Positions 1 through 64,000 of a stretch of 64,000 bases of DNA are shown here, in pieces. This DNA comes from Escherichia phage UB. How positions within the stretch are numbered: position 1 is the first letter of the stretch; each line of letters begins with the position of its first letter. The DNA lies in sequence record MH383160. One strand, given 5' to 3'. The notes under the pieces were generated by a model. It did no database searches and had not been told where the DNA came from. It was given only the letters and a program-made list of their open reading frames with translations. A program made the translations under genes and the position numbers.

Positions 1-303
1 TAAATCATTGAACTCATGTGATGCAGTTTGAACTTTAATTTCTTTGAAGTTATTGGTTATACAACCGGAATAAATATTTCGGTGCAACTCTCTGTACAAC
101 GCAGCATAATCTATGAATTTTGCTTTAGGGTTAAAATCAAGAACACTTTCACCTTTATATGACAATCGGTGGAACGCCGAGAACATAGTCACTTCCCACG
201 GTTGCTTAATATCTAGCTCAGTAATATCAATATTATTGGACAGAAGAACCGTAAAAATCTCACCAATCTTTAATAGTAACTTAGTACGTGCTAGTACTGT
301 CAT
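1..303 (-). CDS. hypothetical protein (partial, C-terminus beyond window start)
   Basis: ATG at 303, open frame of 101 codons to window edge, continues minus-strand gene chain; absent from ORF track because no stop in window. Confidence 0.4.
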   Translation of the reverse strand, partial: MTVLARTKLLLKIGEIFTVLLSNNIDITELDIKQPWEVTMFSAFHRLSYKGESVLDFNPKAKFIDYAALYRELHRNIYSGCITNNFKEIKVQTASHEFNDL

Positions 304-314
304 AGGTTCAATCA

Positions 315-728
315 TTATACACCTTCATATTCATCAAGGAAATCTTCGATGATCATTTCAGCTTCATCCATATGCATCGCATCAACTTCAATAATACGAA
401 TTTTAGATGTATCCCAAATCATAAAGCTAGGAACATTGTCTGGCTCGTAATCATTTTTGTACTGAACAGCATCATAACCTTGAGCCGTGCAATTCTCAAT
501 AAGTGAACGCCACTCATCATCACTGCCTAAATCTTCACACAGAAGCACGTTATCAACATCAACTTCTAAGGTATGCAAGTATACTGTACATGCGTCAACA
601 ACGTTTAGTGGGCTTCTCAGCTTGCGTAAGGCAGCTTCCAAAGCACTGTGTTTACCTCCCATATGAAGTCCACCATACGGGATATAAAAGTTATCAATTT
701 TTACAGTACTCGCATGATACAGTTTCAT
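315..728 (-). CDS. hypothetical protein
   Basis: ORF track 137 aa; AGGAA 8 nt upstream of ATG; in minus-strand chain. Confidence 0.55.
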   Translation of the reverse strand: MKLYHASTVKIDNFYIPYGGLHMGGKHSALEAALRKLRSPLNVVDACTVYLHTLEVDVDNVLLCEDLGSDDEWRSLIENCTAQGYDAVQYKNDYEPDNVPSFMIWDTSKIRIIEVDAMHMDEAEMIIEDFLDEYEGV

Positions 729-737
729 ATTTCATTC

Positions 738-1322
738 CTATTTCAGTACTTTAGTCAATGCTTTCACAGCGGTTTCGAGTTGAGCATAGTCGTTAATTGT
801 AAGGTAATGAATACCATGTGCATTCATTTCAGCATCTATTTTACTATATAAATCAAACATGTCAAGGATATGATTGTATGCATATGAAGTATTTGAAACA
901 CACAATTCTTGGAACAAACGTTCTTCCAAGTCATTCACAACTTCACCATGAATGTCAAGTACTACACCATCTTTGTAAGTATAGTATTCTTCACTCCACT
1001 CTTCAGAAAGTCGGAACAGTAACGGATTCCCGCCGAACACTTCCATGTCATAGGAATTTATCTCACTAAGTAGTGTTTCACCTGGTTCTGGTGTGAAGTC
1101 GAAATATGCGAGTGTTGAACCATCATAGTCCTTGAGTGATATACCAGTATGATTTAAGCTTACTTCACCATAATTATTATTCTTGAACTTAATTTTGATA
1201 TTAATCTCAATGTATTTTATTGTCTCATCATCACTGAAATTGTAATCAATTTTATACTTTTCCCAAAGAAGTTTGATATCTTTGAAGTACTTTAATTTAC
1301 TTTCAATTTCTTTAAAGTCCAT
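738..1322 (-). CDS. FQ-motif family protein (hypothetical)
   Basis: ORF track 194 aa; motif ERLFQELCVS. Confidence 0.6.
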   Translation of the reverse strand: MDFKEIESKLKYFKDIKLLWEKYKIDYNFSDDETIKYIEINIKIKFKNNNYGEVSLNHTGISLKDYDGSTLAYFDFTPEPGETLLSEINSYDMEVFGGNPLLFRLSEEWSEEYYTYKDGVVLDIHGEVVNDLEERLFQELCVSNTSYAYNHILDMFDLYSKIDAEMNAHGIHYLTINDYAQLETAVKALTKVLK

Positions 1323-1914
1323 CTGGAACCACCATTTCTTGAATGTGCTTACATTTTATATTTCCCATATTAGTATGCAATATAAGGGTGTGATTACGCA
1401 ATGATTTTACTTTATAGCACTCATTGAGTACTGAAATAATTCCCCATAACTCTTCTACACTAATAGTGATAGGTTCACTTGTACTCAGTTGCATTAGTGC
1501 TGCTTCAACATCATCTTTGTTATTAATAGTGAACTGAATTCCTCTTTTGAGAATTTTAGTTTTTGGATTGTATTCAGCTAATACATCACCTTCTGGATAA
1601 CCCTCATGAAGTAATAATGTTGTTTCAAAATCACCGCAGTTGAAGTTAATTTCATCATAATCAGGTACACAAATGTTTCCTTCCCCGTACTCATTAGGTT
1701 CAGATTCTAGTGTTAAAATACGCTGAGTCTCATTGCTCAGGATGATAGAATCATTCCAGTACTGGGTAGTGAATGCTCTACGTTTCTTTTGAAAGCACAT
1801 ACTCGACATTGACCCATACTTCTTGTATATGGACTTCTTGAACTCAATAGCAGCAGGAGCCACCTTGATAACTTCACGAATTAAGTCAATAGCTTCTTGA
1901 TAACTTTTTCTCAT
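1312..1914 (-). CDS. hypothetical protein
   Basis: ORF track 200 aa; overlaps neighbours by a few nt in chain. Confidence 0.55.
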   Translation of the reverse strand: MRKSYQEAIDLIREVIKVAPAAIEFKKSIYKKYGSMSSMCFQKKRRAFTTQYWNDSIILSNETQRILTLESEPNEYGEGNICVPDYDEINFNCGDFETTLLLHEGYPEGDVLAEYNPKTKILKRGIQFTINNKDDVEAALMQLSTSEPITISVEELWGIISVLNECYKVKSLRNHTLILHTNMGNIKCKHIQEMVVPDGL

Positions 1915-2462
1915 TTATCGTATCCATATAAAATATGATCTAGTGTACTTTGGACTTCTTCATGAAAGAATGAAGGGTAAACTTGTATTAATTTATCTTT
2001 AAGTTCAAGGGAATGGCATAGTTCTAATGTTTTGTAACAATCCTCGTACTGTGCCAGTACATGCAATGTACTTAACTGAAAATGTTGTTCTTCGGAGTAC
2101 AATAAATCATAAACCATATTATCGGATAAAAGATTAGATTTGATTGAAGGATCAAGTACTGTCTGATGGTGACCAACCCAAAAGATAGCTTTGGAGTTAA
2201 TGTTATTACAACCCCATCCTTTCCCCATCTTTTGGTGAATAGCAAATACACAGGAATCATACAAATTAATGTTCAGACGTTCTTCGTCTGCATGGATAGT
2301 TACACCATCAATAGATAGTGTATATTTGAAATCCATAGCCCCCTCACTTCGTGCACGGGAACTAAAGACGAGATATCGATGAATTATGGTATTGATTTTA
2401 TCTGCCCATCCTTCAACACATTTGGATGCACATAATGTAAAAAGATCATGATTGTAGTTCAT
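1911..2462 (-). CDS. FQ-motif family protein (hypothetical)
   Basis: ORF track 183 aa; motif EEQHFQLSTLH; RBS AAGGAGA upstream. Confidence 0.65.
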   Translation of the reverse strand: MNYNHDLFTLCASKCVEGWADKINTIIHRYLVFSSRARSEGAMDFKYTLSIDGVTIHADEERLNINLYDSCVFAIHQKMGKGWGCNNINSKAIFWVGHHQTVLDPSIKSNLLSDNMVYDLLYSEEQHFQLSTLHVLAQYEDCYKTLELCHSLELKDKLIQVYPSFFHEEVQSTLDHILYGYDK

Positions 2463-2491
2463 AAAATTCTCCTTGAGAACAATGTATCATA

Positions 2492-2517
2492 CAAAAAAAC
2501 CAGAGTCAACCCCTGGT
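2492..2517 (-). terminator. intrinsic terminator
   Basis: minus-strand hairpin ACCAG-loop-CTGGT followed by U7 run, just after stop of 2524..3105. Confidence 0.45.
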
Positions 2518-2523
2518 ACAAAT

Positions 2524-47960: not shown

Positions 47961-47965
47961 GTACT

Positions 47966-52826: not shown

Positions 52827-52854
52827 ATTATACAGTACTGAATCATAATGTCAA
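52827..52854 (-). promoter_or_regulatory. sigma70-like promoter
   Basis: minus strand TTGACA-N16-TATAAT, directed leftward into the non-coding iteron region. Confidence 0.45.
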
Positions 52855-53492
52855 TAGCTTTCTTTCATTATTCAGTACTGATATTCTTGAGAACTACCCG
52901 ACTACAAACATCATTATATCCCACAAATCATAAACGTCCCAACGTAAATTTCAACTTTCGAAGATCCAACTTTTATTTCATAGGTACTCCAAAATTTTTA
53001 GGATCGAGATTTAGGATGGAGTACTAACCAACTTTTTGCTGGAGCCTCAAGGGGTAATGGAATTTTACCCCGAAGGGTAAAGGGGTAATTGAAATTAAGG
53101 TGAAAGTAATAATTCAGTACTAATCATTGCGTGATTACTTTTGATTACATTTGATGTAATTTGAAAAATGGAAAAGGAGCTTGGAAACTACAAAGTACGG
53201 CAGACTTCCTCTGCCTACTTAGTGGCATATTAGTACTGAATCATTCACACACATTTCCGTGCATTCTTGAGCAATCTTGTCTATACTAATCAGTACTGAA
53301 TCATATATAATCATTCTGTGATTCTACGGTGCTCATATAAATGTTTATATATGATTACTTATGACTACCTATGATTACGGGGTTTAGCCTGGGGAGAATC
53401 CTAGTGATCGCATTTGTCCAGGCTGAATTTTAACAATTCGCCTGTACATAAAGGTTGTTCACTAGGAGCTTCCCCTGTCTACTTGTGTTTAA

Positions 53493-53693
53493 TTACTTCC
53501 TATATATAAGCATTAAGATATAGTAGTACTGATTGTACTGTACATTCTCTTTAATATTATAAGGGTCTATAGCAATCTCGGTACATCTGTTAAATGCATA
53601 TCTATTAAATGCCAGTGGAATTATAGATCTAATCCATACTTGTTCATTTTCTTTTAGTTTACTTATATAGAAGTTTTTATACTCTTTATGCAT
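53493..53693 (-). CDS. MHKEYY family small protein (hypothetical)
   Basis: ORF track 66 aa; MHKEYKNFY...YYILMLIYRK. Confidence 0.55.
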   Translation of the reverse strand: MHKEYKNFYISKLKENEQVWIRSIIPLAFNRYAFNRCTEIAIDPYNIKENVQYNQYYYILMLIYRK

Positions 53694-53706
53694 AGTATTA
53701 TGTCTA

Positions 53707-53889
53707 TTAATATGATAGTACTAGTGTTAGTACTGAGCACAATTTTTCTTTATAGTTCTTAGGGTATATAGAATCTTTTATGCACTCATTGAAGTGCCAT
53801 AGGTATAATCTTGGGTCGCATTCTTTATATATTCTTACGGGGACGAATGTTAGTTTTCTTATATAGAATTCTTTATGTTCTTTATTCAT
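53707..53889 (-). CDS. MHKEYY family small protein (hypothetical)
   Basis: ORF track 60 aa; MNKEHKEFY... Confidence 0.55.
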   Translation of the reverse strand: MNKEHKEFYIRKLTFVPVRIYKECDPRLYLWHFNECIKDSIYPKNYKEKLCSVLTLVLSY

Positions 53890-53890
53890 A

Positions 53891-54079
53891 TTAGTACCTG
53901 AATATAAGTAGGATTATGTTATAGTACTGGTTAGTACTGCAATGATTCTCTATACATCGATTAACAGTTATGGAATAGCTATATCTGGCGTAAGCATTAT
54001 CCAGCGGGATTTTACATTGAGCACTTAGAGAAAGTACAGTAGGTAGTGTATTCAAATAGAAGTCTTTGTAATTATTCAT
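53891..54079 (-). CDS. MHKEYY family small protein (hypothetical)
   Basis: ORF track 62 aa; MNNYKDFY...YNIILLIFRY. Confidence 0.55.
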   Translation of the reverse strand: MNNYKDFYLNTLPTVLSLSAQCKIPLDNAYARYSYSITVNRCIENHCSTNQYYNIILLIFRY

Positions 54080-54281
54080 ACAGGAATAGTATACCTATGA
54101 TGCCGGAGTACAGGTTAGTACTGTTACCATCTTCATTTGCGTTTAAAGTCATTTGAATACAATTATTGTAGCATACTCTGCCGAAATATGTATTAGTACT
54201 TAAAGGTGGTGTAGTCCTTAGAAACATTTGTTCTGAGGGGCTTATGTATTTGGAGTAGAATTCTTTATGTTCTTTATTCAT
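54072..54281 (-). CDS. MHKEYY family small protein (hypothetical)
   Basis: ORF track 69 aa; MNKEHKEFY...; near-duplicate of 57255..57464. Confidence 0.55.
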   Translation of the reverse strand: MNKEHKEFYSKYISPSEQMFLRTTPPLSTNTYFGRVCYNNCIQMTLNANEDGNSTNLYSGIIGILFLYE

Positions 54282-54286
54282 ATTAG

Positions 54287-54472
54287 TTAGTGTCTGTATA
54301 TAAGTAATAGTAAGAATACGTACTGCACATCTTCATCTTTAGTATTGAGTACTGTACGTATTGCGTCATGGAACAAGAATATAGTACTTGGGTCATGAAA
54401 ATTTAAAGGGGTTCTGGGTACGGCACATTTGTAGTTCCCTTTAACAAATTGTGTGTAGTATTCTCTATGCAT
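54287..54472 (-). CDS. MHKEYY family small protein (hypothetical)
   Basis: ORF track 61 aa; MHREYY...LLLLIYRH. Confidence 0.55.
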   Translation of the reverse strand: MHREYYTQFVKGNYKCAVPRTPLNFHDPSTIFLFHDAIRTVLNTKDEDVQYVFLLLLIYRH

Positions 54473-54473
54473 A

Positions 54474-54659
54474 TTAGTACCTATATATTAGGGCGAGAAT
54501 GTAGTACAATTCATATGGAATGTAATTTGGGGTGATCGCACACTGTGTATGGTAAATGAATTGTTCGGTATTTTTCTTATCCTTGATATCTATTGGGATT
54601 TGTGGTATAAGCATTTGGGAGTTTAGATCGAGATGGCTTAAGTAGAATTCTTTATGCAT
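54474..54659 (-). CDS. MHKEYY family small protein (hypothetical)
   Basis: ORF track 61 aa; MHKEFY...YYILALIYRY. Confidence 0.55.
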   Translation of the reverse strand: MHKEFYLSHLDLNSQMLIPQIPIDIKDKKNTEQFIYHTQCAITPNYIPYELYYILALIYRY

Positions 54660-54668
54660 ATTGTTCTC

Positions 54669-54857
54669 TTAGAATACGAAAGCTAGGTACAGGGTATGAT
54701 ACAGTACTCGATGATAGCTGTCAAAATCTAGTATACATGCTTTAGTACACATAGTAAAATACACTTTATCATTTTGTGCATTGATACCGCGAGGTTTATC
54801 TAATAGATTAGTTCTGAGGTACATTGGGAAATATTTTGTGTAGTATTCTTTATGCAT
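54669..54857 (-). CDS. MHKEYY family small protein (hypothetical)
   Basis: ORF track ORF trimmed to ATG 54857 (MHKEYYTKYFPMYL). Confidence 0.55.
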   Translation of the reverse strand: MHKEYYTKYFPMYLRTNLLDKPRGINAQNDKVYFTMCTKACILDFDSYHRVLYHTLYLAFVF

Positions 54858-54858
54858 G

Positions 54859-55041
54859 TTAGTACCTGAATATAAGTAGGATAGTGTTATATAGCTGGTC
54901 ATAACTACTACTATTTTCTATACTTCGTTCTATGCAGTTATTGAATCCAAGTACTGCCAAATCGTTATCCAGAGGGACTTTATATCTGGCGTAGTGTTCA
55001 AAAATGCTGGGGAGAAATTGTTTGTAGTATTCTTTGTGCAT
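54859..55041 (-). CDS. MHKEYY family small protein (hypothetical)
   Basis: ORF track 60 aa; MHKEYYKQF...YNTILLIFRY. Confidence 0.55.
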   Translation of the reverse strand: MHKEYYKQFLPSIFEHYARYKVPLDNDLAVLGFNNCIERSIENSSSYDQLYNTILLIFRY

Positions 55042-55051
55042 ATTGTTCTCT

Positions 55052-55240
55052 TTAGTACTTGAATATTAGGGCGAGGATGTAATACAGTTTATATGTTCTA
55101 TCCTCGTACATTAGGGTGTACTTAGTACATTCTTGGAACATTGTTTTTGCGTCATCTTTTATGCCCAATGTAACGTTTGGTATAAGGCTTTGTAGATACA
55201 TTGGGAGTTTCTCTATGTAGTATTCTTTATAGTTGTTCAT
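55052..55240 (-). CDS. MHKEYY family small protein (hypothetical)
   Basis: ORF track 62 aa; MNNYKEYYIEKLPMYL...YYILALIFKY. Confidence 0.55.
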   Translation of the reverse strand: MNNYKEYYIEKLPMYLQSLIPNVTLGIKDDAKTMFQECTKYTLMYEDRTYKLYYILALIFKY

Positions 55241-55248
55241 ATTATGTG

Positions 55249-55428
55249 TTATTTCGTGAAAACAAGGGTTAGTACTGCATAGTACAAGTCATACGTATCT
55301 TTAGGGTTAATAGCACCTTTAATACATTCTTTCATTAATTCATTATAGATAATTTTAGTACTGAAGGTATTGGATGTTACTATATCGGAATTAAGGTACG
55401 ACAAGTAGAATTCTTTATGTTTGTGCAT
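55249..55428 (-). CDS. MHKEYY family small protein (hypothetical)
   Basis: 59-aa ORF MHKHKEFYLSYL...YYAVLTLVFTK; below ORF-track cutoff. Confidence 0.45.
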   Translation of the reverse strand: MHKHKEFYLSYLNSDIVTSNTFSTKIIYNELMKECIKGAINPKDTYDLYYAVLTLVFTK

Positions 55429-55429
55429 A

Positions 55430-55615
55430 TTAGTACTTATATATTAGTAAAAGGATGTGATACAGTACTCGATTATAGTCTTCAATATATATCGAGGATT
55501 TAGTGCACTGAATGAAGTAGTCTTTTTCGTAGTTTTTTTCTATACCCAATGGTTCTGTTGGTAGAAGGTGTTGGAGATACATTGGGAGTTTCTCTATGTA
55601 GTATTCTTTATGCAT
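55430..55615 (-). CDS. MHKEYY family small protein (hypothetical)
   Basis: ORF track ORF trimmed to ATG 55615 (MHKEYYIEKLPMYL). Confidence 0.55.
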   Translation of the reverse strand: MHKEYYIEKLPMYLQHLLPTEPLGIEKNYEKDYFIQCTKSSIYIEDYNRVLYHILLLIYKY

Positions 55616-56273
55616 AGTTTGTAATATACGTAATGAGGTGATGCATTTTCTTATTAGTACTGATAATTTCCTGTACATGTTTTGTCAGATTGTACGCGTT
55701 TTTATAGAGTACTGGATTATCGATTACAGTACTGTACATGAATAGTTCTTCTTCCTGTAGTTCTTTGTGTTCTAGTTCTTTGAGGAATTGCAGTACTGTA
55801 TCAGTTTCGTCAGTAGGTTGTGCTTGCCAGAAGTGCATTTTCTCGTGTACTTTTTCTGATCCTACGTAGTATCCATCACCGATTTGGAATTGAGCACTAC
55901 TGATATCATTTGGTGTATTACAATTCACGAATAGGTATACGTTTCCATAAGAGATATTCAAAACACACGGGATACCATTTAACTGTATAGTTAAGCCGAA
56001 ATATACGTTTTTTATATTTTTAGTACTAGTATTAGTACTCAATACTTTTAAATCAGTATTATAGATATTCGCATAATCAATAGAGATATTATTTTTCTTC
56101 AAGTACGATTTGAGGTTCTTAGATACGAGAACTGTACTGAATTTATCCTTTTTATTTCGTTTCTTTAGTACATTAGGGTGATAAGTATATGAAGATGTAA
56201 CTGATTCTGCTTGAATACTGTTGAGGTACTTAAAGTGCTTAAGGTATTGTTTACTGTGTGCATTAAGTTTCAT
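55608..56273 (-). CDS. FQ-motif family protein (hypothetical), outlier copy inside MHKEYY array
   Basis: ORF track 221 aa; motif EEELFMYSTVID. Confidence 0.6.
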   Translation of the reverse strand: MKLNAHSKQYLKHFKYLNSIQAESVTSSYTYHPNVLKKRNKKDKFSTVLVSKNLKSYLKKNNISIDYANIYNTDLKVLSTNTSTKNIKNVYFGLTIQLNGIPCVLNISYGNVYLFVNCNTPNDISSAQFQIGDGYYVGSEKVHEKMHFWQAQPTDETDTVLQFLKELEHKELQEEELFMYSTVIDNPVLYKNAYNLTKHVQEIISTNKKMHHLITYITNYA

Positions 56274-56283
56274 TTGGTTTCCT

Positions 56284-56463
56284 TTATATAGATGCCAGGG
56301 CGAGGATTTCCCTGTAGGGATTATCTTGTGTTAGTACAGAATAAATGCAGCTATTGAGATTAATATTTTTAGTACTTTTTGTTCCTAGTTTGTAGTAATC
56401 AACGAATGTGTCGTACATGAAACGGTCTTTTATGGTTATACGTTCTATATAGAATTGTTGCAT
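56284..56463 (-). CDS. MHKEYY family small protein, divergent (hypothetical)
   Basis: 59-aa ORF MQQFYIERITIKDRF...; below ORF-track cutoff. Confidence 0.4.
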   Translation of the reverse strand: MQQFYIERITIKDRFMYDTFVDYYKLGTKSTKNINLNSCIYSVLTQDNPYREILALASI

Positions 56464-56471
56464 AGTATTCC

Positions 56472-56654
56472 TTATATAGAGATTAGTTTCATTACTTCTC
56501 TGTATGTGTACTTTTCGTTTTGTGCATCTCTTGTGACGACATATAGGAAGGTGTGTTTATCTTTTTTGTTCCCGCAATTGTAGAAAATATTGAACTTATT
56601 GAAGTTGAATCTTTCGGCGTGTTGTAGTTTAGTTAAATAGAATTCTATGTTCAT
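56472..56654 (-). CDS. MHKEYY family small protein, divergent (hypothetical)
   Basis: ORF track 60 aa; MNIEFYLTKL...KYTYREVMKLISI. Confidence 0.5.
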   Translation of the reverse strand: MNIEFYLTKLQHAERFNFNKFNIFYNCGNKKDKHTFLYVVTRDAQNEKYTYREVMKLISI

Positions 56655-56662
56655 TTTATTCC

Positions 56663-56848
56663 TTACATTTCAATAAGTTTAAGTACTGCTCGGTACGTGT
56701 ACTTAGTTGTCAGTGCTTCTTTAATAGAAACACAGAAGTAATGTTTTTTGTCTCTTATACTGCCGCGTTTGTAGTACCACACATGGGAGTTGTGACTGTA
56801 CTTGTCTCTGTCGGATAGTTGTTGGTAGTAGTAGCTTATATGATTCAT
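56663..56848 (-). CDS. MHKEYY family small protein, divergent (hypothetical)
   Basis: ORF track 61 aa; ...KYTYRAVLKLIEM. Confidence 0.5.
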   Translation of the reverse strand: MNHISYYYQQLSDRDKYSHNSHVWYYKRGSIRDKKHYFCVSIKEALTTKYTYRAVLKLIEM

Positions 56849-57057
56849 TATAATGTAATTAGCCTTACTATATTAAAGTACTCGGTTCCTGGTGTACCTT
56901 GTAGTATATTACGCACGACATTTTTTTGGTGCTGGATGATTGCTGAAGGTGCGGTTCTTTTTAGTTTTTTTAAAGTACTGAATTCTTGTTTAAGTATGAA
57001 CTGTACATCTTTAGGGAGAATATCTATGTAGTACTGATGAATGTTTGTAGTTTTCAT
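56848..57057 (-). CDS. MHKEYY family small protein, divergent (hypothetical)
   Basis: ORF track 69 aa; MKTTNIHQYYIDILP... Confidence 0.5.
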   Translation of the reverse strand: MKTTNIHQYYIDILPKDVQFILKQEFSTLKKLKRTAPSAIIQHQKNVVRNILQGTPGTEYFNIVRLITL

Positions 57058-57067
57058 ATAGCACCTT

Positions 57068-57262
57068 TTAGAACTTAAAGATGAGGTTCAGGATAGAGCG
57101 GTACTTAGTTTCAGGGAACTGATGTTCTATTGCATAACGTGTCGCCATCCTGAAATCGTAATTGTAATATAGATTATCCTTTCTCATAGGTGGTGCTAAA
57201 GAGAATGATAGCTGGTCTTGCTTGTGTAGTTTACTACCATAGAAATCTTTATGATTATTCAT
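57068..57262 (-). CDS. MHKEYY family small protein (hypothetical)
   Basis: ORF track 64 aa; MNNHKDFY...LNLIFKF. Confidence 0.55.
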   Translation of the reverse strand: MNNHKDFYGSKLHKQDQLSFSLAPPMRKDNLYYNYDFRMATRYAIEHQFPETKYRSILNLIFKF

Positions 57263-57464
57263 AGAAGTAGATTAGTCCTATTAAACCTGAGTACATAATA
57301 TTTTTGTTATTGCATTCGATTGCTTCTAGAGTACTACGTATACAATTATTAAAGCAATCTCTACCGAATTGAGTATTGGTACTTACAGGTGATACACTCC
57401 TTAGAAACAATTGTTCTTCGTTGCTAAGGTATTTGGTGTAGAATTCTTTATGTTCAGTATTCAT
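57255..57464 (-). CDS. MHKEYY family small protein (hypothetical)
   Basis: ORF track 69 aa; MNTEHKEFYTKYLS... Confidence 0.55.
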   Translation of the reverse strand: MNTEHKEFYTKYLSNEEQLFLRSVSPVSTNTQFGRDCFNNCIRSTLEAIECNNKNIMYSGLIGLIYFYE

Positions 57465-57465
57465 A

Positions 57466-57669
57466 TTAGTACTCGATTAATAGGGTAAGGATGTAATAGT
57501 ATTGCATACATTCTACCCCTTGTAAAGCATTTCTTATGTTATTATTCCTGTACGAGTTCAGGAGTTTAGGGCTACGTTTGAGGTGTTTGAAATTAGTTTG
57601 TGTATGCAGTAGGCTTTCACGTAGACCTTTTGTTGGTAGTGCATCGATGTAGTACTGTTCGATATTCAT
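57466..57669 (-). CDS. MHKEYY family small protein, divergent (hypothetical)
   Basis: ORF track 67 aa; MNIEQYYIDALP...YYYILTLLIEY. Confidence 0.5.
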   Translation of the reverse strand: MNIEQYYIDALPTKGLRESLLHTQTNFKHLKRSPKLLNSYRNNNIRNALQGVECMQYYYILTLLIEY

Positions 57670-57893
57670 ATAGATAGCAGTACTAAGATTTTTGATAATT
57701 GTTTATTGCTATCCCCGCAGATGTTGCTGTGTAAAATACTCACAATGAGGGTATCAATTGCATTGTTCATCATAAGGGTGCATCCTGGACTATTATAATT
57801 TTTTAGCTCAATTAGCCACGAACTATCCGAGAGAAATTCCCCGTACTCTAGTTCATTTAGAGTATTGAGGTAGTACTTAAGAGTATTTGTCAT
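57666..57893 (-). CDS. MHKEYY family small protein, divergent (hypothetical)
   Basis: ORF track 75 aa; first gene of array; AAGGAG RBS. Confidence 0.5.
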   Translation of the reverse strand: MTNTLKYYLNTLNELEYGEFLSDSSWLIELKNYNSPGCTLMMNNAIDTLIVSILHSNICGDSNKQLSKILVLLSI

Positions 57894-57908
57894 GTGTAGT
57901 TCTCCTTA

Positions 57909-57964: not shown

Positions 57965-57979
57965 TAAATATGATATAAT
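57965..57979 (+). promoter_or_regulatory. -10-only promoter-like element (candidate late-type promoter)
   Basis: TAAATATGATATAAT followed by GAATAAGGAGG RBS; no -35 match. Confidence 0.35.
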
Positions 57980-57995
57980 GAATAAGGAGGGAAAT

Positions 57996-59132
57996 ATGTT
58001 ACCTTTTGCAAGAATGATGAATTATGGGAACGTAGCACCAGATAAACTAAAAATACGTGATATTGTTGCAGGTGCTAATTCATTATTACTAATAACAGAG
58101 GATAATGAATTATGGGTGCGTGGTAATAATGCGTATGGCAAATTAGGTATAGGAACTGATACTATAGTGAATGTAACCGAGTGGACTAAAGTTAGAGATG
58201 ATGTTAAGTTTGCTTGTGCTAGTAATTTAGTATGCGTTGTATTAACTGTAGATAATAAAATTTTATACTGTGGTGATGAATGGTTTGAATCTGGTGGTTC
58301 GACAAGTTCTAAAGTTGTTACATGGAAAGATGTTACGACACAATTTAGTGCAGTGAATCTAAGCACAGTTCGTGAAATGAAAATAACTTATTATTGTGTA
58401 GGATTACTTACAAATGATAATAGATTATATGCTAAAGGATATGATAATAACCAATCATTTGGTGGTTCAACAAGCAAAGTTAATGCTGTATTAGTTGCGT
58501 CAAATGTTTCAAAATTCTACACTTCTCTATCTGGTACTATATATTCTAGTACTACTGGTGGTTACTATCGCTGTGGTATAAGCAATACTGGAGCATTGGG
58601 TACTAGCACAAATTTAACTTCTTATAATTTGTACTCTGCTCCCGAATTTGCATCCGAATGTGCAGTTGGTATGTCAACATTAAACTCTGGTATATTATAT
58701 TATGATACTAATGGTATCACTAGATATGTTATAGCAGGTCAAAATAGAAATTATCAACTAGGTAATTCTTCTTCAAATACCACAAACGTATATTCGTATA
58801 CAGAATTAACCGGATATAGAGGCAGGTTTAGGGATTTGTGGAGTGATATGAATAACTCTGTTCTTTCTTTTGCTATAAGCACAGATGGCAATACTTTATA
58901 TTATGCTGGTACTAACAATACACTATCTTCTGGTGATCCTGGTGTTGAATATTCATCTGCATTCAAAGAAGTACCACACGGGTTTAATGATATAACAAAG
59001 GCGGCATCGTTAGCATATCTATCTATAGTGCAAGATTCAACGGGATGGTATTATTCTGGAAATGCAACTACGTTATATGGTTTGCCATCGAGTGGTGAAT
59101 TTATACCATTACCATTACCAACATTAATTTAA
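57996..59132 (+). CDS. RCC1-like repeat (beta-propeller) protein, MLPFARM paralog family
   Basis: ORF trimmed to ATG 57996 after AAGGAGG; repeats GNNAYGKLGIG, GYDNNQSFGG, GQNRNYQLGN. Confidence 0.6.
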   Translation: MLPFARMMNYGNVAPDKLKIRDIVAGANSLLLITEDNELWVRGNNAYGKLGIGTDTIVNVTEWTKVRDDVKFACASNLVCVVLTVDNKILYCGDEWFESGGSTSSKVVTWKDVTTQFSAVNLSTVREMKITYYCVGLLTNDNRLYAKGYDNNQSFGGSTSKVNAVLVASNVSKFYTSLSGTIYSSTTGGYYRCGISNTGALGTSTNLTSYNLYSAPEFASECAVGMSTLNSGILYYDTNGITRYVIAGQNRNYQLGNSSSNTTNVYSYTELTGYRGRFRDLWSDMNNSVLSFAISTDGNTLYYAGTNNTLSSGDPGVEYSSAFKEVPHGFNDITKAASLAYLSIVQDSTGWYYSGNATTLYGLPSSGEFIPLPLPTLI

Positions 59133-59138
59133 ATATAG

Positions 59139-59169
59139 GCCAGTACTTGATACTGGCTTTCTTTTTTTT
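59139..59169 (+). terminator. intrinsic terminator
   Basis: GCCAGTA-CTTGA-TACTGGC then T-rich run. Confidence 0.6.
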
Positions 59170-59172
59170 GTA

Positions 59173-59188
59173 TTAAATATAGTATAAT
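59173..59188 (+). promoter_or_regulatory. -10-only promoter-like element
   Basis: conserved TTAAATATAGTATAAT immediately before GAATAAGGAGG. Confidence 0.35.
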
Positions 59189-59204
59189 GAATAAGGAGGG
59201 ATTT

Positions 59205-60314
59205 ATGTTACCTTTTGGAAGAATGGTTAAGTACGGAAATATTGTACCTGGTCCTAAAAATATAATTAAAGTTGGTGCTTCTACACAAGGTCAATTCTTA
59301 TTGACTGATTCACATGATTTATATTACATAGGTAGAAATCAAGGTGGTGAATCTGGAAATGGTAATACCAACACGGTATCTTCATGGATATTAGTAAGTG
59401 CAGATGTTTCTAATTTTTTCGTGGGTGATCGTACACTTGTTATTATTAAAAATGATAATACTATATGGACATCAGGTCAAACGTACTGGTTCTCATCTTC
59501 TACAACTACTTCTTACAGTACTGTATTAGTTGAAAGGACTAGTTGGTTTACCACGGCTATACCAGTAAGTGAGATTGCTAATATTGTATGTACAAATGGT
59601 TTAATATTTGTACTTAGCACTAATTCAGTACTCTATGGTGCAGGAGATAATGGATATCGTGGTTCTTTGGGTATTGGTTCATCATCAATTTATACATTAA
59701 CTCAATGTGCTACGAACGTTCGTAAAGTAATGACAAATGCGAATGATAGTATGTATCTTACATTAGATAATAAGCTATATAGTTCTGGATGGAATAGTAG
59801 TGGGCAGCATGGTACGGGGAACCAAACACAAATTAATACTTGGGGATTACGTAGTTCTGGTGTAATCGATGCAGCAATTGGTGGTAATGCATTAAATTAC
59901 TATAATGGTACATCATATTTCGTATGTGGTCAAACTCCAAACTTTCTTAGTTCAGGTACGACTACATTCCGTGCAGTTCCTGTAAGTACTTTGCCTAATA
60001 GTTCTCCGTTGTTTATGACGAATTCACCTGCATTAAATACTGCTACACAAATGGTAATTACTAGTACATATCAGAAGGGTGTTGGGGCGAACCGTGGTTT
60101 GGGATTAAACAATTCTCAAACTGGTGCTATATATAGTGCTACCAATTTACAATTACCCGTTGAAGTTAGTGAGATTAGGGATGTTCTTTTTAGTGATGGT
60201 TTGACATCGATATTAACCAAAAATGGAGATGTGTATAGTACTGGATCGTATTACGCCATTCCAGGTGCAATCGAGGATGTTGCAGTCTTTACTAAAATTG
60301 ATTTACCAAAATAA
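59205..60314 (+). CDS. RCC1-like repeat protein, MLPFGRM paralog family
   Basis: ORF trimmed to ATG 59205; repeats GDNGYRGSLGIG, GWNSSGQHGTG. Confidence 0.6.
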   Translation: MLPFGRMVKYGNIVPGPKNIIKVGASTQGQFLLTDSHDLYYIGRNQGGESGNGNTNTVSSWILVSADVSNFFVGDRTLVIIKNDNTIWTSGQTYWFSSSTTTSYSTVLVERTSWFTTAIPVSEIANIVCTNGLIFVLSTNSVLYGAGDNGYRGSLGIGSSSIYTLTQCATNVRKVMTNANDSMYLTLDNKLYSSGWNSSGQHGTGNQTQINTWGLRSSGVIDAAIGGNALNYYNGTSYFVCGQTPNFLSSGTTTFRAVPVSTLPNSSPLFMTNSPALNTATQMVITSTYQKGVGANRGLGLNNSQTGAIYSATNLQLPVEVSEIRDVLFSDGLTSILTKNGDVYSTGSYYAIPGAIEDVAVFTKIDLPK

Positions 60315-60320
60315 CATAAT

Positions 60321-60350
60321 GCCAGTACTTGATACTGGCTTTTATTTTTT
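60321..60350 (+). terminator. intrinsic terminator
   Basis: GCCAGTA-CTTGA-TACTGGC then TTTTATTTTTT. Confidence 0.6.
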
Positions 60351-60352
60351 GA

Positions 60353-60368
60353 TTAAATATAGTATAAT
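60353..60368 (+). promoter_or_regulatory. -10-only promoter-like element
   Basis: TTAAATATAGTATAAT before RBS. Confidence 0.35.
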
Positions 60369-60384
60369 GAATAAAGGAGGAATT

Positions 60385-61572
60385 ATGTTACCTTTTGCAA
60401 GAATGGTTAAGTACGGGAATAAAGTCATTCCATATGTTCCCAATTTTACTAAATTAGTCACCCCAGCAGTTGGTTATTCATTTACATGCACAATGCTGCT
60501 GGATGTAAATGGATCAGTGTGGGCTATGGGTCTTCAGAATGGTGGAATTTTTGGGTTAGGGAATACTACACAGGTTACTGAATGGACAAAAATATATAGC
60601 AATGTTAAAGATTTTTGGTGCAGTACAGGGAATGGGTTTTGTCTAATACGAACAAATGATGATAGATTCTTTTATAGTGGTTTAGATAAATGGCTAGGTA
60701 ATAATACAACAAATACTGTAACAACATTCACTGAATGTACGAGTTATTTTACACAATTTGGTATTTCAAAAATCAAAGAGATATATGTAGGTCTTGATTA
60801 TGCTTTGATTTTAGGTACTGATAATAGTTTATATTTGTTAGGTGATAATAAAAATTCAAAGTTTGGTTTAAACACTGCATCATATTTTAATAAATTTACA
60901 TTTTTAGTCGATAATGTTAAAAAATTCTGTTCATCCATCACACCCTCTAACTGGATTATTAAACTAGATAATACAATATGGCGTACTGGGACAACATCTC
61001 ATGGAACGTTGGGAAATGGAGTTCAAAACACATATATATTTCCTTGGGTTCAATATAAGGGCACACCTGTTACCGAAGCTATAGACGTTTTTTGTAGTGC
61101 GAGTTATATTGGTATTATAACTAAAGGTACACCAGAATCATGTCCTATGTATACAATGGGCTATCAAGCTGATGGTCAGTTGGGTAATAATACTACAGCA
61201 GGGGGTTATAAATTAACGCCAACGTTATCGAAAACCGTTCCAGATGATAGTGAATTCATTCGAATTGAAAACATCTCATCCCGTGGCCTGGTATATTATA
61301 GCTCTGGTAAAATTTATAGTACTGGTTATAATAACAATGGTCAATTGGCAAATAACAGTACAATTAATTCTGGTTCATTTGTTGAAGCAATTTTACCTGA
61401 TGGTGTTAATTTTAAGAAAAGTGAATCACTTGTAGCTGGGAACGATGCAACGTTGTATATGTACATTAATAATAAATTATACTACGCGGGGAAATCCCCT
61501 GATAATATTTCAGCAAGTAGTTCATCTGTCATGAAAGAGTTCCCACTTCCAACAATCAATGCCAGTACTTGA
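60385..61572 (+). CDS. RCC1-like repeat protein, MLPFARM paralog family
   Basis: ORF-track ORF 60223..61572 trimmed to ATG 60385 after AAAGGAGG; repeats GLQNGGIFGLGN, GYQADGQLGNN, GYNNNGQLANN. Confidence 0.6.
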   Translation: MLPFARMVKYGNKVIPYVPNFTKLVTPAVGYSFTCTMLLDVNGSVWAMGLQNGGIFGLGNTTQVTEWTKIYSNVKDFWCSTGNGFCLIRTNDDRFFYSGLDKWLGNNTTNTVTTFTECTSYFTQFGISKIKEIYVGLDYALILGTDNSLYLLGDNKNSKFGLNTASYFNKFTFLVDNVKKFCSSITPSNWIIKLDNTIWRTGTTSHGTLGNGVQNTYIFPWVQYKGTPVTEAIDVFCSASYIGIITKGTPESCPMYTMGYQADGQLGNNTTAGGYKLTPTLSKTVPDDSEFIRIENISSRGLVYYSSGKIYSTGYNNNGQLANNSTINSGSFVEAILPDGVNFKKSESLVAGNDATLYMYINNKLYYAGKSPDNISASSSSVMKEFPLPTINAST

Positions 61573-61590
61573 TACTGGTATTCTTATTTG
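61561..61590 (+). terminator. intrinsic terminator
   Basis: CCAGTA-CTTGA-TACTGG then T-rich run; overlaps stop codon. Confidence 0.55.
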
Positions 61591-61592
61591 TA

Positions 61593-61608
61593 TTAAATAT
61601 AGTATAAT
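61593..61608 (+). promoter_or_regulatory. -10-only promoter-like element
   Basis: TTAAATATAGTATAAT before RBS. Confidence 0.35.
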
Positions 61609-61624
61609 GAATAAAGGAGGAATT

Positions 61625-62812
61625 ATGTTACCTTTTGCAAGAATGATGAATTATGGGAATATTGTGCCTGTACCACTACAAATTAAGAAAATAATACCAA
61701 CTGATACTGATGTTGTTGTACTTTATACTGATGGTCAACTATACGCACGAGGAAATAATGCTTTTGGGAAGTTTGGAAGAGGCAACAACACTGCATTAAG
61801 AACATGGACATTAATTAGAGAAAACGTTAACGATTTCTGGATCACACAAGGAACTTTGTTAGTTCAAGATAATGACTTAAATTATTACTATTGTGGATAT
61901 GGTGATCATATTGGTTTACCAAGTAGTACTACTACGTTTTTAAGTTATAACCAATATATTGAAAATTTGTTCACGCAAAGTTCAAGTACTTCAATTAAAC
62001 AGATGTATGCAGGTACTACGTGGTTTACTTTCTTAATGGATAATAATACAATATGGAGTACTGGTTGGAGTGGGGGTAAACAATTCGCTGATGGTACGGG
62101 TAGTACTCAACAAATAACAGATGGATCATTTGTAAAAGCTGTCACGCCTGATGTTGATATTGCACAAATACAGTCAACAAATAACTGTGTAATGTTTTTT
62201 GATACACAAAATAATTTATATATTGGTGGTGGTACGTCAGGTATAAGTACTAGTACTACATGGACTTCATATAATGAATATACTTTATATAAACCAAGTA
62301 CAACATACACAAAAACGTTACAATACACTGGATGCTCAAGTGGTGCAGTCAGTGCTTTGGTTGAGAATCCAAGTACTGGTGCACGTCAGTTTCTAGTTGG
62401 TGGTTTAGCGAATAATGGTGCATGGGGCAACAATACCACAACCAGTTCAGCACTTGCTGTATTAGGGAGCAATAGTACGACATTACCACCCGGTACTTTG
62501 TATTCAATTCATACTGGATACCCAACACAATCTAGTATACTAGTTACGAGTACTGGTGTATATGCAACTGGTTTAAATGCGAGTAGTTATGCTGGCTCTT
62601 TGGGTGTAGGTTCTAATGTTACTATTGGTAAATTTACTGCATGTCCAATGCCTACACAAATAACATATTCTATGTATGATAAAATAAAAATATATAGAGG
62701 TTCATATCGTACATTTCTAACTGATATGAAAAATATATATTCAACCGGAACTTATGATGATGGTGGTCCTAGTACAACTAGATATGTACTAGATACACCC
62801 CGTCAATTATAA
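61625..62812 (+). CDS. RCC1-like repeat protein, MLPFARM paralog family
   Basis: ORF-track ORF trimmed to ATG 61625; repeat GNNAFGKFGRGN. Confidence 0.6.
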   Translation: MLPFARMMNYGNIVPVPLQIKKIIPTDTDVVVLYTDGQLYARGNNAFGKFGRGNNTALRTWTLIRENVNDFWITQGTLLVQDNDLNYYYCGYGDHIGLPSSTTTFLSYNQYIENLFTQSSSTSIKQMYAGTTWFTFLMDNNTIWSTGWSGGKQFADGTGSTQQITDGSFVKAVTPDVDIAQIQSTNNCVMFFDTQNNLYIGGGTSGISTSTTWTSYNEYTLYKPSTTYTKTLQYTGCSSGAVSALVENPSTGARQFLVGGLANNGAWGNNTTTSSALAVLGSNSTTLPPGTLYSIHTGYPTQSSILVTSTGVYATGLNASSYAGSLGVGSNVTIGKFTACPMPTQITYSMYDKIKIYRGSYRTFLTDMKNIYSTGTYDDGGPSTTRYVLDTPRQL

Positions 62813-62818
62813 TATAAT

Positions 62819-62849
62819 AGCCAGTACTCAGTACTGGCTTTCTTATTTG
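62819..62849 (+). terminator. intrinsic terminator
   Basis: 9-bp stem AGCCAGTAC-TCA-GTACTGGCT then T-rich run. Confidence 0.6.
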
Positions 62850-62851
62850 TA

Positions 62852-62867
62852 TTAAATATAGTATAAT
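62852..62867 (+). promoter_or_regulatory. -10-only promoter-like element
   Basis: TTAAATATAGTATAAT before RBS. Confidence 0.35.
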
Positions 62868-62883
62868 GAATAAAGGAGGAAGT

Positions 62884-63621
62884 ATGTTACCTTTTGGAAG
62901 AATGGTAAAGTACGGGAATAAAATTGAATATAAGCCAGATGGTGAACAATTAATCACGACAATAGGAACAACACAATTTACAGTTCCTGCTGGCGTTACC
63001 GAAATATCAGTATGTGTTATTTCGCCGGGTGGTCAACGTGGTGCTGGTGGCGGCTTATCGTGGCGTAATAATATTCCGGTTACTAGTGGTGAGTACTTAA
63101 GTGTTTCTCTTACACATCCCAACACTACTACACCAGTTGAAAACGGTTTATATCGTGGAACTGAAAAACTATGTGTTAGCTTCACTGGTGAATATAGGGT
63201 TGGTGGACTAGGTGGGAAAGCTGCTAACGCTATTAATGATGGTGGTGGTAATGGGGGCAACGCTGGTGTAAGTGGTGGTGCAGTCATTGGTGGTGGTGCT
63301 GGTGGCTACACTGGTAAAGGTGGTAACGGAGATGCAATCACTGGTGAAAATGGTGCTGGCGGCGGCGGTGGTGGTGGTGCATTCTATAATACCTCGTTCA
63401 TTGGTACGGGTGGTGGTACTGGTATCATTGTTCAAGGTGCTAATGGTATTGGCGGTAGATACGATGGTTCATATAATGGTGGTGCTGGTAGTGGTGGTGC
63501 TGGTAAGATGTATGGTGGTGGTGGTAGTATATGGGATAATTTTTCTTATACGGCTGCTGGTGGTGGTGCTGTGCGAATAATATGGGGACGTGGGAGATAT
63601 TATCCTAACAATTCAGTCTAA
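62884..63621 (+). CDS. MLPFGRM-family protein with glycine-rich C-terminal region
   Basis: ORF trimmed to ATG 62884; shared N-terminus MLPFGRMVKYGN; C-terminal 150 aa about half Gly (GGGAGGYTGKGGNGD..., GGGGGGGAF...). Confidence 0.55.
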   Translation: MLPFGRMVKYGNKIEYKPDGEQLITTIGTTQFTVPAGVTEISVCVISPGGQRGAGGGLSWRNNIPVTSGEYLSVSLTHPNTTTPVENGLYRGTEKLCVSFTGEYRVGGLGGKAANAINDGGGNGGNAGVSGGAVIGGGAGGYTGKGGNGDAITGENGAGGGGGGGAFYNTSFIGTGGGTGIIVQGANGIGGRYDGSYNGGAGSGGAGKMYGGGGSIWDNFSYTAAGGGAVRIIWGRGRYYPNNSV

Positions 63622-63628
63622 AATATAG

Positions 63629-63658
63629 GCCAGTACTTGATACTGGCTTTCTTATTTG
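63629..63658 (+). terminator. intrinsic terminator
   Basis: GCCAGTA-CTTGA-TACTGGC then T-rich run. Confidence 0.6.
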
Positions 63659-63660
63659 TA

Positions 63661-63676
63661 TTAAATATAGTATAAT
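63661..63676 (+). promoter_or_regulatory. -10-only promoter-like element
   Basis: TTAAATATAGTATAAT before RBS. Confidence 0.35.
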
Positions 63677-63693
63677 GAATAAGGAGGGGAATT

Positions 63694-64000
63694 ATGTTAC
63701 CTTTTGCAAGAATGGTTAAGTACGGGAATATAGCACCAGTTCCAGTAGTTCCTACAATAAAAGATTTTAAGATTGGCTTTTCACATGAAGTGTTATTGGA
63801 CAGTGCAGGTGATGCATGGGGTATTGGATACAATACAGATGGGCAGTTAGGCTTTTTGGATGCAAATACCAATTCACTAGGTGTGTGGTCTAAGATATAT
63901 ACTGATGTTCGATTAATTGGAGTTACTGCTAGATATACAGTGGTAGTTACTAATAATAATAGAATCCTTTACGCAGGAAATAACTTAATTTCTAGTACTA
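63694..64000 (+). CDS. RCC1-like repeat protein, MLPFARM paralog family (partial, continues beyond window end)
   Basis: ATG 63694 after AAGGAGGG; MLPFARMVKYGN...GYNTDGQLGF; no stop in window so absent from ORF track. Confidence 0.5.
   Translation, partial: MLPFARMVKYGNIAPVPVVPTIKDFKIGFSHEVLLDSAGDAWGIGYNTDGQLGFLDANTNSLGVWSKIYTDVRLIGVTARYTVVVTNNNRILYAGNNLISST

Follow-up and report, generated by a model that had tools for sequence, protein, structure and literature searches.

What keeps the palindromic hexamer AGTACT so abundant in the DNA of Escherichia phage UB? We analysed a stretch of 64,000 nucleotides (nt) from this phage (sequence record MH383160; hereafter, the window), in which a sequence-only reading had taken AGTACT to be strongly over-represented, which suggested a positive role. 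Megablast assigned the window to the Asteriusvirus group (PBECO4, 121Q, G17, phAPEC6, SP27, E9.1, and fEgEco12), which are E. coli jumbo phages of ~350 kb, at 92–96% identity. We found that the excess is a trait of a whole lineage of jumbo phages, and that AGTACT forms the core of a soft palindrome of 12 bp, TTCAGTACTGAA, whose sites are under purifying selection. With about even confidence, we propose that the selection-maintained motif is recognised by a lineage-specific, phage-encoded, symmetric (dimeric) reader of double-stranded DNA, which would thereby mark phage DNA. The element under study is the following:

1..64000, palindrome without strand: AGTACT, 262 copies with the soft consensus (TT)C-AGTACT-G(AA), scattered through coding and non-coding DNA.

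These 262 copies compare with 18.7 ± 4.2 (maximum 26) in dinucleotide-preserving shuffles, a 14-fold excess. AGTACT leads all hexamers whichever background is chosen. The Markov expectations for the window are 19, 48, 108, and 225 at orders 1, 2, 3, and 4, respectively; under the order-3 model, AGTACT has a z-score of 14.9 and ranks first among all 4096 hexamers, while the order-4 expectation is an unfair null because that model uses the 5-mers AGTAC and GTACT, which are themselves inflated by the motif. Synonymous codons were also shuffled within each open reading frame (ORF), with the protein and its codon usage held fixed, and this gave 57.9 ± 5.7 sites (maximum 72) as compared to 185 observed in ORFs, which rules out a codon or dipeptide artefact. 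Outside the two AGTACT-free blocks described below, 62 of 109 Ser-Thr dipeptides are written AGT-ACT, with 16 expected from the codon shuffle. The sites fall in all three reading frames (68, 44, and 70), with 80 more in non-coding DNA or at ORF edges, and non-coding DNA is twice as dense in them as coding DNA (7.2 versus 3.4 per kb).

The over-representation noticed earlier is therefore stronger than had been stated. The sequence-only reading had proposed an order-3 Markov background as a check and had allowed that the enrichment might vanish once composition and codons were controlled; it persists under both. Its rough estimate of ~0.3 sites per kb expected from composition was right, as was its count of about five in 12.0–13.1 kb (there are five). 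It overstated the case in placing a site on nearly every line of 33–53 kb, where 123 sites in 20 kb amount to ~1 per 160 nt, and the Ser-Thr of the FQxST motif, said to be frequently AGT-ACT, is so encoded in only 4 of 12 cases.

To place the motif in a wider setting, we used EC22.5-2, an independently sequenced relative with a whole genome of 350 kb and 93% identity to the window overall; TH47, a more distant relative that is ~16% diverged in the compared block (17% for its lineage); a complete RaK2-type Klebsiella phage genome; and 25-kb samples of Cronobacter phage GAP32, Salmonella phage Munch, Yersinia phage fHe-Yen9-04, Erwinia phage Hallingskeid, and Xanthomonas phage XaC1. AGTACT is again the top hexamer in EC22.5-2 (913 copies versus 101 expected, z = 81, 9-fold), in the Klebsiella phage (945 versus 80 expected), and in all five samples, with an 8–12-fold excess in the latter. 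The same excess in phages of at least six host genera makes it a trait of the phage lineage and not of the host, and this host independence points to a phage-encoded reader. In a sample of E. coli K-12 DNA, the motif occurs at 0.06 per kb, so that phage DNA is ~40 times denser, and ~100 times denser in the early region and terminal repeats. Some variants of the motif are specific to one lineage, with GGTACT also enriched on the sense strand in XaC1 (45 versus 5) and CGTACG present in Hallingskeid (see below).

The sites cover these genomes fairly evenly. In EC22.5-2, 775 of the 913 copies (~85%) lie inside ORFs, at a uniform 2.2 per kb of coding DNA that includes every large structural gene. 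In two genomes, six of the seven regions compared have sites spaced more regularly than at random (coefficient of variation 0.78–0.91 versus 0.99 ± 0.05–0.10). The longest gaps are shorter than chance, none exceeding 2.1 kb in EC22.5-2 outside two special blocks, and no helical or codon periodicity of the spacing was found up to 130 bp.

The bases around the motif are also symmetric. C stands at position −1 in 40–47% and G at +1 in 47–57% of the sites in frames 0 and 2 and in non-coding DNA, which shows that the flank preference is no coding artefact; at frame 1 sites, where +1 is a coding-constrained second codon position, G(+1) reaches just 25%. G(−1) and C(+1) are generally disfavoured. The extended form CAGTACTG is present in 50 copies in the window, and the commonest 12-mer around AGTACT in two genera is the perfect palindrome TTCAGTACTGAA, with 16 and 31 copies versus ~3 expected if the flanks were independent. 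Flanks of this graded, operator-like kind are atypical for a restriction–modification site of strictly 6 bp. The motif is not part of a longer repeat; beyond ±3 the flanks are almost free of information, and the top 12-mer of the window has only 10 copies among 261 sites. LexA boxes and spacing-dependent composite sites were likewise rejected, as there is no preferred spacing except in duplicated promoter cassettes.

Comparison with EC22.5-2 revealed that the sites are maintained by selection. Divergence is 2.6% inside the motif and 6.4% in its flanks (Fisher p = 5e-10). The values for motif and background are 2.6% versus 9.9% at third codon positions and 3.5% versus 8.1% in non-coding DNA, so that the motif is conserved ~2.5–4 times better than flanks or synonymous positions, and all six of its positions are conserved rather than a single one. 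In the comparison with TH47, 43 of 60 sites are retained (72%), with 35% expected. The synonymous opportunities for writing AGTACT are used in 24–76% of cases, with the maximum in the early region. A biased repair process of the very-short-patch type was considered and rejected, because no strong precursor-specific depletion is seen among the one-mismatch neighbours in EC22.5-2: eight of nine pairs stand above expectation (ratios 1.2–2.15), the deamination precursors AGTATT/AATACT have a ratio of 1.23, and only AGGACT/AGTCCT falls somewhat short (0.61). As the cause of the excess, a neutral bias is all but excluded. The central idea of the sequence-only reading, that an enriched palindrome implies a positive role, thus holds at the DNA level, given purifying selection and an excess across at least six host genera.

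These results are consistent with a model in which AGTACT is kept at high, fairly even density by selection across the RaK2/Asteriusvirus/Mimasvirus/Eneladusvirus jumbo-phage lineage and is recognised by a putative reader, either a DNA-binding protein or a DNA enzyme, that the phage would encode. Selection would act on the number and coverage of sites, with the motif fitted wherever it is allowed, as in synonymous codons, promoter spacers, and overlaps with −35 hexamers. Given the ~40-fold contrast in density, the putative reader would coat or mark phage DNA selectively, and its purpose may be the discrimination of self from host DNA or the protection or organisation of phage DNA. Three roles had been suggested for the motif from the letters alone: a binding site for a phage factor, a recombination signal, and a signature of DNA modification. 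The first fits best with the soft symmetric flanks and the lineage-wide, host-independent distribution; the other two are among the alternatives weighed below.

The density of sites is highest in the early region, and here the promoters deserve attention, because the earlier reading had emphasised them. The features concerned are as follows:

33641..57900, minus strand: the densest zone, with 159 AGTACT (6.5 per kb), early genes that are small, and ~38 promoters of the sigma-70 type.

39909..39936, minus strand: an example early promoter, TTGACA-N16-TATAAT, with AGTACT at 39916–39921 directly upstream of the −10 hexamer (agtactGTATAAT).

42257..42284, minus strand: a second example of an early promoter, in which −35 hexamer and motif are fused (TTGACagtact, 42274–42279).

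The early region is 72% coding, with tiny genes, and its homologous counterpart is the density peak in the Klebsiella phage too (~8 per kb). The direct terminal repeats of fEgEco12 measure 20,993 bp (PMC13070987). Position 20,993 of fEgEco12 maps to ~33.5 kb in the window, which is the inner boundary of the ~21-kb terminal repeat; the dense zone ends exactly at this boundary, and the last AGTACT of fEgEco12 lies 136 bp inside it. The terminal repeats carry early genes, which by analogy with T5 and T7 are probably the first to enter the cell.

The dense zone contains 13 exact TTGACA-N16/17-TATAAT promoters, and AGTACT is found in 26 of the 38 promoter-like sites of 33.6–54.7 kb in three fixed registers, namely agtactGTATAAT directly upstream of the −10 hexamer (17), TTGACagtact (5), and agtacTTGCAA (~8). 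The motif had thus been seen correctly in promoter spacers and beside −35 hexamers. Each register shares bases with the promoter consensus, which fits packing of the motif into free positions at least as well as a dedicated operator. The stress laid on promoters and terminators was nevertheless misleading, since ~85% of the sites are intragenic and, genome-wide in EC22.5-2, no positional peak relative to gene starts or start codons is seen outside the early region. Terminator stems, the other location named, can be rejected as the main one; the motif is present in only 1 of 28 terminator-like hairpins, and what stands of that claim is GCCAGTACT, which contains the motif and has 12 copies in the window. 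A search with a promoter fragment against E. coli genomes gave no match.

A separate repeated element of the early region has its −35 hexamer within a G+C-rich hairpin (AAAGGGATTGACTCCGGTCAGTCCCTTT), followed by TATTAT (34963–34989, 37221–37251, 40488–40518, and 44514–44540, minus strand). These cassettes look like combined terminators and promoters, and their promoters are without AGTACT.

From position 1 to 57.9 kb, the window consists of small genes that are nearly all on the minus strand. AGTACT is wholly absent from two parts of this segment, 17,303–25,012 and 28,902–33,640, which had escaped mention in the sequence-only reading. In EC22.5-2, the two largest AGTACT-free intervals measure 8.3 and 5.0 kb, the next 2.1 kb, and both of the large ones fall in the region of the window. 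The blocks and their surroundings are as follows:

17371..25012, minus strand as sense strand: gap 1, 7,643 nt with zero sense-strand ACT, where ~151 are expected.

17420..17615, minus strand: an intergenic region of ~200 nt at the 3' edge of the ACT-free block, with the only sense-strand ATAAATA (late-promoter-like) in the window.

25013..28901, minus strand: a mixed zone with 19 AGTACT and 12 sense-strand AGTACA, in which sense-strand ACT is already sparse from ~26.4 kb downstream.

28902..33640, minus strand: gap 2, 4.7 kb with zero AGTACT and 9 GTAC, in a tandem array of paralogous genes.

57978..63621, plus strand: genes of RCC1-repeat paralogues, with 3.8 AGTACT per kb.

The last of these regions is also rich in the motif, so the excess is independent of gene orientation. 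The two gaps appear to have different causes. Gap 2 lies within a tandem array (25236–33412, minus strand) of a 21-member paralogue family (PHROG 4148) with proteins of 65–96 amino acids, plus one of 269 amino acids, which begins right at the inner boundary of the terminal repeat. The array was noted as almost free of GTAC, and the frequency of that word in gap 2 was also rated as ordinary. The simplest explanation is a founder effect, in which a motif-free unit was expanded; exclusion by selection is a possible alternative.

In gap 1, AGTACT is impossible because the trinucleotide ACT does not occur on the sense strand at all. The block comprises ~20 genes over 7.6–8.2 kb (EC22.5-2 record 58328–66539 is its counterpart) and is free of ACT in all codon phases. 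The Thr codon ACT has a share of 0% as compared to 42% in the neighbouring block, TACT occurs 0 times versus 79 expected, and AGT is at normal levels on the same strand. When all 64 trinucleotides are scored on either strand of the 350-kb genome, no second interval of this kind emerges; the block scores 159 and the next best 25. EC22.5-2 has identical edges and TH47 equivalent ones, and on this agreement among independently sequenced isolates and TH47, an assembly or base-calling artefact was rejected. The 5' edge of the ACT-sparse zone falls inside a gene.

GTAC is as dense in gap 1 as elsewhere, but it takes the form of sense-strand AGTACA, whose 40 copies are spread over all three frames and share the C(−1)/G(+1) preference. 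AGTACW reaches 5.2 per kb here, as it does in the adjacent normal block. In TH47, these variant sites are retained at 62% versus 32% expected, and none has turned into AGTACT. AGTACA is thus still selected within the block, which means that partial sites have value, as a binding-energy model predicts. The ban on ACT is absent from the RaK2-type genome, which has the same AGTACT excess, and it is therefore an independent constraint, specific to Asteriusvirus, that was laid over the pressure for AGTACT.

The absence of one trinucleotide is what would be expected of transcripts that are immune to a ribonuclease with a three-nucleotide target, such as MazF. Gap 1, and only gap 1, resembles the ACA-less mRNAs that resist MazF in that one trinucleotide is fully missing from the sense strand only, in all frames and across several genes. 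The block may encode ACU-free mRNAs immune to a ribonuclease, or it may provide a DNA strand that lacks a site for priming or nicking. MazF-SEA is specific for UACG and UACU, and ChpB for ACD (PMC10864209, PMC12151602). Neither enzyme has the specificity that the block would require, because UACG is a further target of MazF-SEA, as ACA and ACG are of ChpB, and these words are abundant in gap 1. We know of no ribonuclease restricted to ACU. Among the endoribonuclease specificities in the literature, none fits the ACT-free block; the proteins themselves were not searched.

Besides the motif, the window and its relatives show other biases in word usage. Fifteen 6-bp palindromes have 0 copies in EC22.5-2, where 16–48 are expected of each (CCATGG, CTGCAG, GCATGC, GGATCC, GGTACC, GTCGAC, GAGCTC, CTCGAG, GCTAGC, CGTACG, TGGCCA, TCCGGA, AGGCCT, AGCGCT, and TGCGCA), and the window shows the same zeros; among them are the sites of NcoI, PstI, SphI, BamHI, KpnI, SalI, SacI, XhoI, and NheI. 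The zero set of the Klebsiella phage differs, with 44 copies of GGTACC, 21 of CCATGG, and 15 of GGATCC, and CGTACG has 12 copies in Hallingskeid and none in every other relative sampled. As other palindromes are purged, ~900 copies of the ScaI-type site AGTACT cannot be neutral. The tetranucleotide GCGC is missing from the window, from EC22.5-2 (0 versus 180 expected), and from all seven relatives, representing six host genera, while the host has 6.8 per kb. Its absence suggests continuing lethal selection, for example by a putative phage-encoded nuclease specific for GCGC.

The recombination signal Chi (GCTGGTGG) is enriched, with 13 copies in the window, 28 in EC22.5-2 versus ~2 expected (a rough composition estimate), and 20 versus 1.8 in the Klebsiella phage. 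Its positions in the window are as follows:

34871, 35093, 36672, 40423, 41691, 43154, 46713, 51774, and 52623, minus strand: Chi.

52635, 63043, 63298, and 63556, plus strand: Chi.

Nine copies in the same orientation lie inside the terminal repeat, and this cluster suggests that a genome end is protected against RecBCD. The most depleted hexamers of the window are TAAATA (21 versus 70 expected) and TATTTA (7 versus 55), a depletion also noted in EC22.5-2, and TATAAATA is not present in the window. A late promoter of the T4 type, ATAAATA, has been described for CBB and GAP32 (PMC5259590), and the depletion fits an avoidance of spurious promoters of this type.

Two further observations concern a gene-junction element and tRNA genes. 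GCCAGTACT is located a few bases past the stop codon of each RCC1-repeat paralogue (59139, 60321, 61561, 62820, and 63629 in the window) and forms a conserved gene-junction element. No tRNA genes were found in the 64-kb window; EC22.5-2 encodes a tRNA-Ser with the anticodon ACU (piece L007, 19489–19580), which matches AGU alone, the codon for Ser in the motif. This anticodon is unusual, since GCU is the normal one for AGY codons. The further tRNAs of that genome are Thr(UGU), Ser(UGA), Arg(UCU), Gly(UCC), Asn, and Met.

We searched for candidate readers among the proteins of these phages. Pfam and PHROG searches with the genes of both gaps and the early region assigned no function except a GNAT acetyltransferase. 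The clade has a compact C5-methyltransferase that is similar along its entire length to the catalytic domain of DNMT3, and the enzymes of the E. coli and Erwinia phages share 78% identity. It was rejected as the reader, because the RaK2 enzyme makes 5mCpG (PMC3622015) and because AGTACT is missing (0 versus 8 expected) from phage ALITA, whose homologue is 51% identical. EC22.5-2 also encodes a 173-amino-acid methyltransferase of the Dam family (PF05869), which is 64% identical in the RaK2-type genome; homologues outside the clade are at most 43% identical and are uninformative for specificity. This gene has a close neighbour:

91151–92454 in the L002 record of EC22.5-2: the PF05869 methyltransferase gene, overlapping a CapR gene by 4 bp.

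The CapR neighbour encodes a zinc-ribbon protein with Pfam matches only to CapR and DUF723 and a C-terminus that by eye resembles T5orf172/GIY-YIG nucleases, and it looks like a homing endonuclease inserted beside the methyltransferase. The E. coli nucleoid-occlusion protein SlmA, a dimeric protein of the helix-turn-helix type, binds GTgAGTACTcAC, a 12-bp palindrome with an AGTACT core. This arrangement is common to both, but the GT...AC flanks of the SlmA site are slightly depleted at the phage sites, whose flanks are TTC...GAA: GT and AC stand at 36 and 38 of the 913 sites versus ~55 expected on each side, with one full site only, and the SlmA site was therefore set aside.

Several points weigh against the proposed phage-encoded reader and its marking of DNA. 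The searches identified no such reader, and a DNA-binding domain was not recognised by Pfam in any of 29 distinct proteins of the window. The CapR/T5orf172 gene was rejected as a restriction partner, because it appears to be a sporadic homing endonuclease, found at 99% identity or more in only two records. The evidence for a self-marking purpose consists only of the contrast in density and the distribution. In addition, the higher density in the terminal repeat could reflect weaker coding constraint in its small genes, the even coverage fits signals of the replication, repair, or recombination type equally well, and a role in site-specific methylation is conceivable.

Of the competing accounts, a target for a phage methyltransferase is possible, though we consider it unlikely. 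AGTACT would then be an epigenetic mark for strand discrimination, timing, or immunity to ScaI/Eco255I, with the PF05869 enzyme, conserved in the clade, as the candidate. Such a role is compatible with the reader proposed above, as the methyltransferase could be that reader or one of several. In a clade that purges other palindromes, 900 unprotected ScaI-type sites would be a liability, and the even coverage resembles the use of GATC by Dam and MutH. However, methylation alone explains the tolerance of AGTACT and not its 10-fold excess, soft 12-bp flanks are unusual for the site of a type II methyltransferase, the CpG-specific C5 enzyme does not track the motif, and the PF05869 family, whose specificity could not be deduced, is widespread in phages. 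Ten enzymes, ScaI not included, cut fEgEco12 DNA normally (PMC13070987), and a global hypermodification can therefore be excluded. An early sigma-70 operator, at which a phage regulator would switch early transcription while the intragenic sites act as secondary sinks or roadblocks, appears improbable to us. It would account for the 26 promoter-like sites with three fixed registers that overlap the core elements in otherwise variable spacers, and for the top density in the early region of both E. coli and Klebsiella phages, but the motif is not confined to promoters, and its intragenic majority shows no gene-start peak. The registers are places that share promoter consensus bases (the CA of TTGACA and a CTG before TATAAT), as packing predicts, and the early promoters of T5 likewise have CTG before TATAAT. 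Duplicated cassettes, moreover, account for many of the motif-bearing promoters of the window.

We rate just as low the probability that AGTACT serves replication, repair, or recombination as a signal for which regular coverage is required, be it a priming site, a strand-discrimination nick, or a palindromic Chi-like signal. Under-dispersed spacing, short maximum gaps, and the presence of sites genome-wide agree with such a role, as does a density that peaks at the genome ends, where E. coli Chi clusters too; yet the primase sites known are three nucleotides long, the Chi sites known lack symmetry and are read on a single strand, and a block of ~8 kb without a full site is tolerated. Somewhat less probable still is a signal in RNA, AGUACU, serving as a processing, RNase, or binding site, with the palindrome in DNA incidental. 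The only change of the motif is strand-specific relative to transcription (sense-strand AGTACA, no ACT), the AGU-ACU frame accounts for half of the coding sites, and ACU is the anticodon of the phage tRNA-Ser. Against this stand the perfect dyad symmetry of the flanks out to ±3 and an equal enrichment on either gene strand and in promoter DNA upstream of transcription starts, and the ban in gap 1 hits ACT in any context instead of the hexamer and is absent from RaK2-type phages, which makes it a separate constraint. The least probable account, and a very unlikely one, is the lack of any function, with AGTACT a by-product of a mutational or very-short-patch-like repair bias or of codon or dipeptide preference. 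Biased repair inflates certain words in E. coli, and AGT and ACT are common codons here. But the behaviour of the one-mismatch neighbours, the conservation of all six positions, and a spacing more regular than random all contradict it. The excess also persists when codons are controlled for, and non-coding DNA shows it no less than coding DNA; the motif is, in addition, actively excluded from one block in which the variant AGTACA is selected.

A broader reading, which we offer tentatively and hold to be unlikely, joins the proposed reader to the other word biases. Jumbo phages of this lineage may tell their own DNA from that of the host by sequence words and not by modified bases, with AGTACT (~900 copies) as a mark of self read by a phage protein that protects, organises, or licenses DNA, and GCGC (0 in 350 kb, ~7 per kb in the host) as the non-self target of a phage weapon. 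In Asteriusvirus, the ~20 ACU-free genes beside the terminal repeat would yield mRNAs that survive a phage- or host-encoded, ACU-directed ribonuclease, which would destroy other transcripts.

The closest known phenomenon is HIP1 (Highly Iterated Palindrome 1) of cyanobacteria. For this sequence, GCGATCGC, no role in peptides, RNA, or gene regulation was found in a study that called the problem unresolved after 20 years (PMC5861425). AGTACT passes the same kinds of test, as its excess is of the order of 10-fold or more, it is conserved within and between ORFs, and peptide, codon, and regulatory explanations fail. The two are not entirely alike: AGTACT belongs to a virus lineage and HIP1 to a cellular phylum; AGTACT has a 6-bp core with soft flanks and a ~10-fold excess, whereas HIP1 is a strict 8-mer with a 15–300-fold excess; HIP1 is periodic at 10–90 kb, a scale for which a genome of 350 kb is too short, and AGTACT has no short-range periodicity; and the AGTACT-rich genomes purge many other palindromes. 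HIP1 contains GATC and CGATCG, which are known methylation sites. To our knowledge, no methylation of AGTACT has been described in these phages.

The hexamer is identical to the site of ScaI and Eco255I, and the classic avoidance of palindromes is seen here for other sites, as it is for AGTACT in coliphage ALITA. In these jumbo phages, by contrast, AGTACT is enriched 10-fold, with flank preferences that a strict 6-bp enzyme would not impose, and no ScaI-like enzyme or cognate AGTACT methyltransferase was identified in our searches. Chi, KOPS, and DNA uptake sequences are similar in being over-represented, dispersed words kept by selection, which cover genomes and distinguish own from foreign DNA, and Chi itself is enriched in these phages and clustered in the terminal repeat. 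They are, however, asymmetric and strand-skewed, while AGTACT is palindromic and without orientation, with no cognate machine known. In the searchable literature on these phages, we came across no account of an excess of AGTACT, of missing GCGC, or of a block devoid of ACT.

Avoidance of palindromes is the usual pattern in phages, and a positively selected, lineage-wide, hyper-abundant palindrome of the restriction type is the opposite case. The absence of GCGC, the removal of palindromes, the clustering of Chi, tRNA-Ser(ACU), and above all the ACT-free block are independent leads on how phage and host DNA or RNA may be discriminated. These results present a viral counterpart to the HIP1 problem, and a tractable one, as the genome is small, the phage can be cultured, and the sites can be recoded. 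They imply that an undiscovered sequence reader may be present in widespread 350-kb phages of Escherichia, Salmonella, Klebsiella, Cronobacter, Yersinia, Erwinia, and Xanthomonas, some of which have been proposed for therapy.

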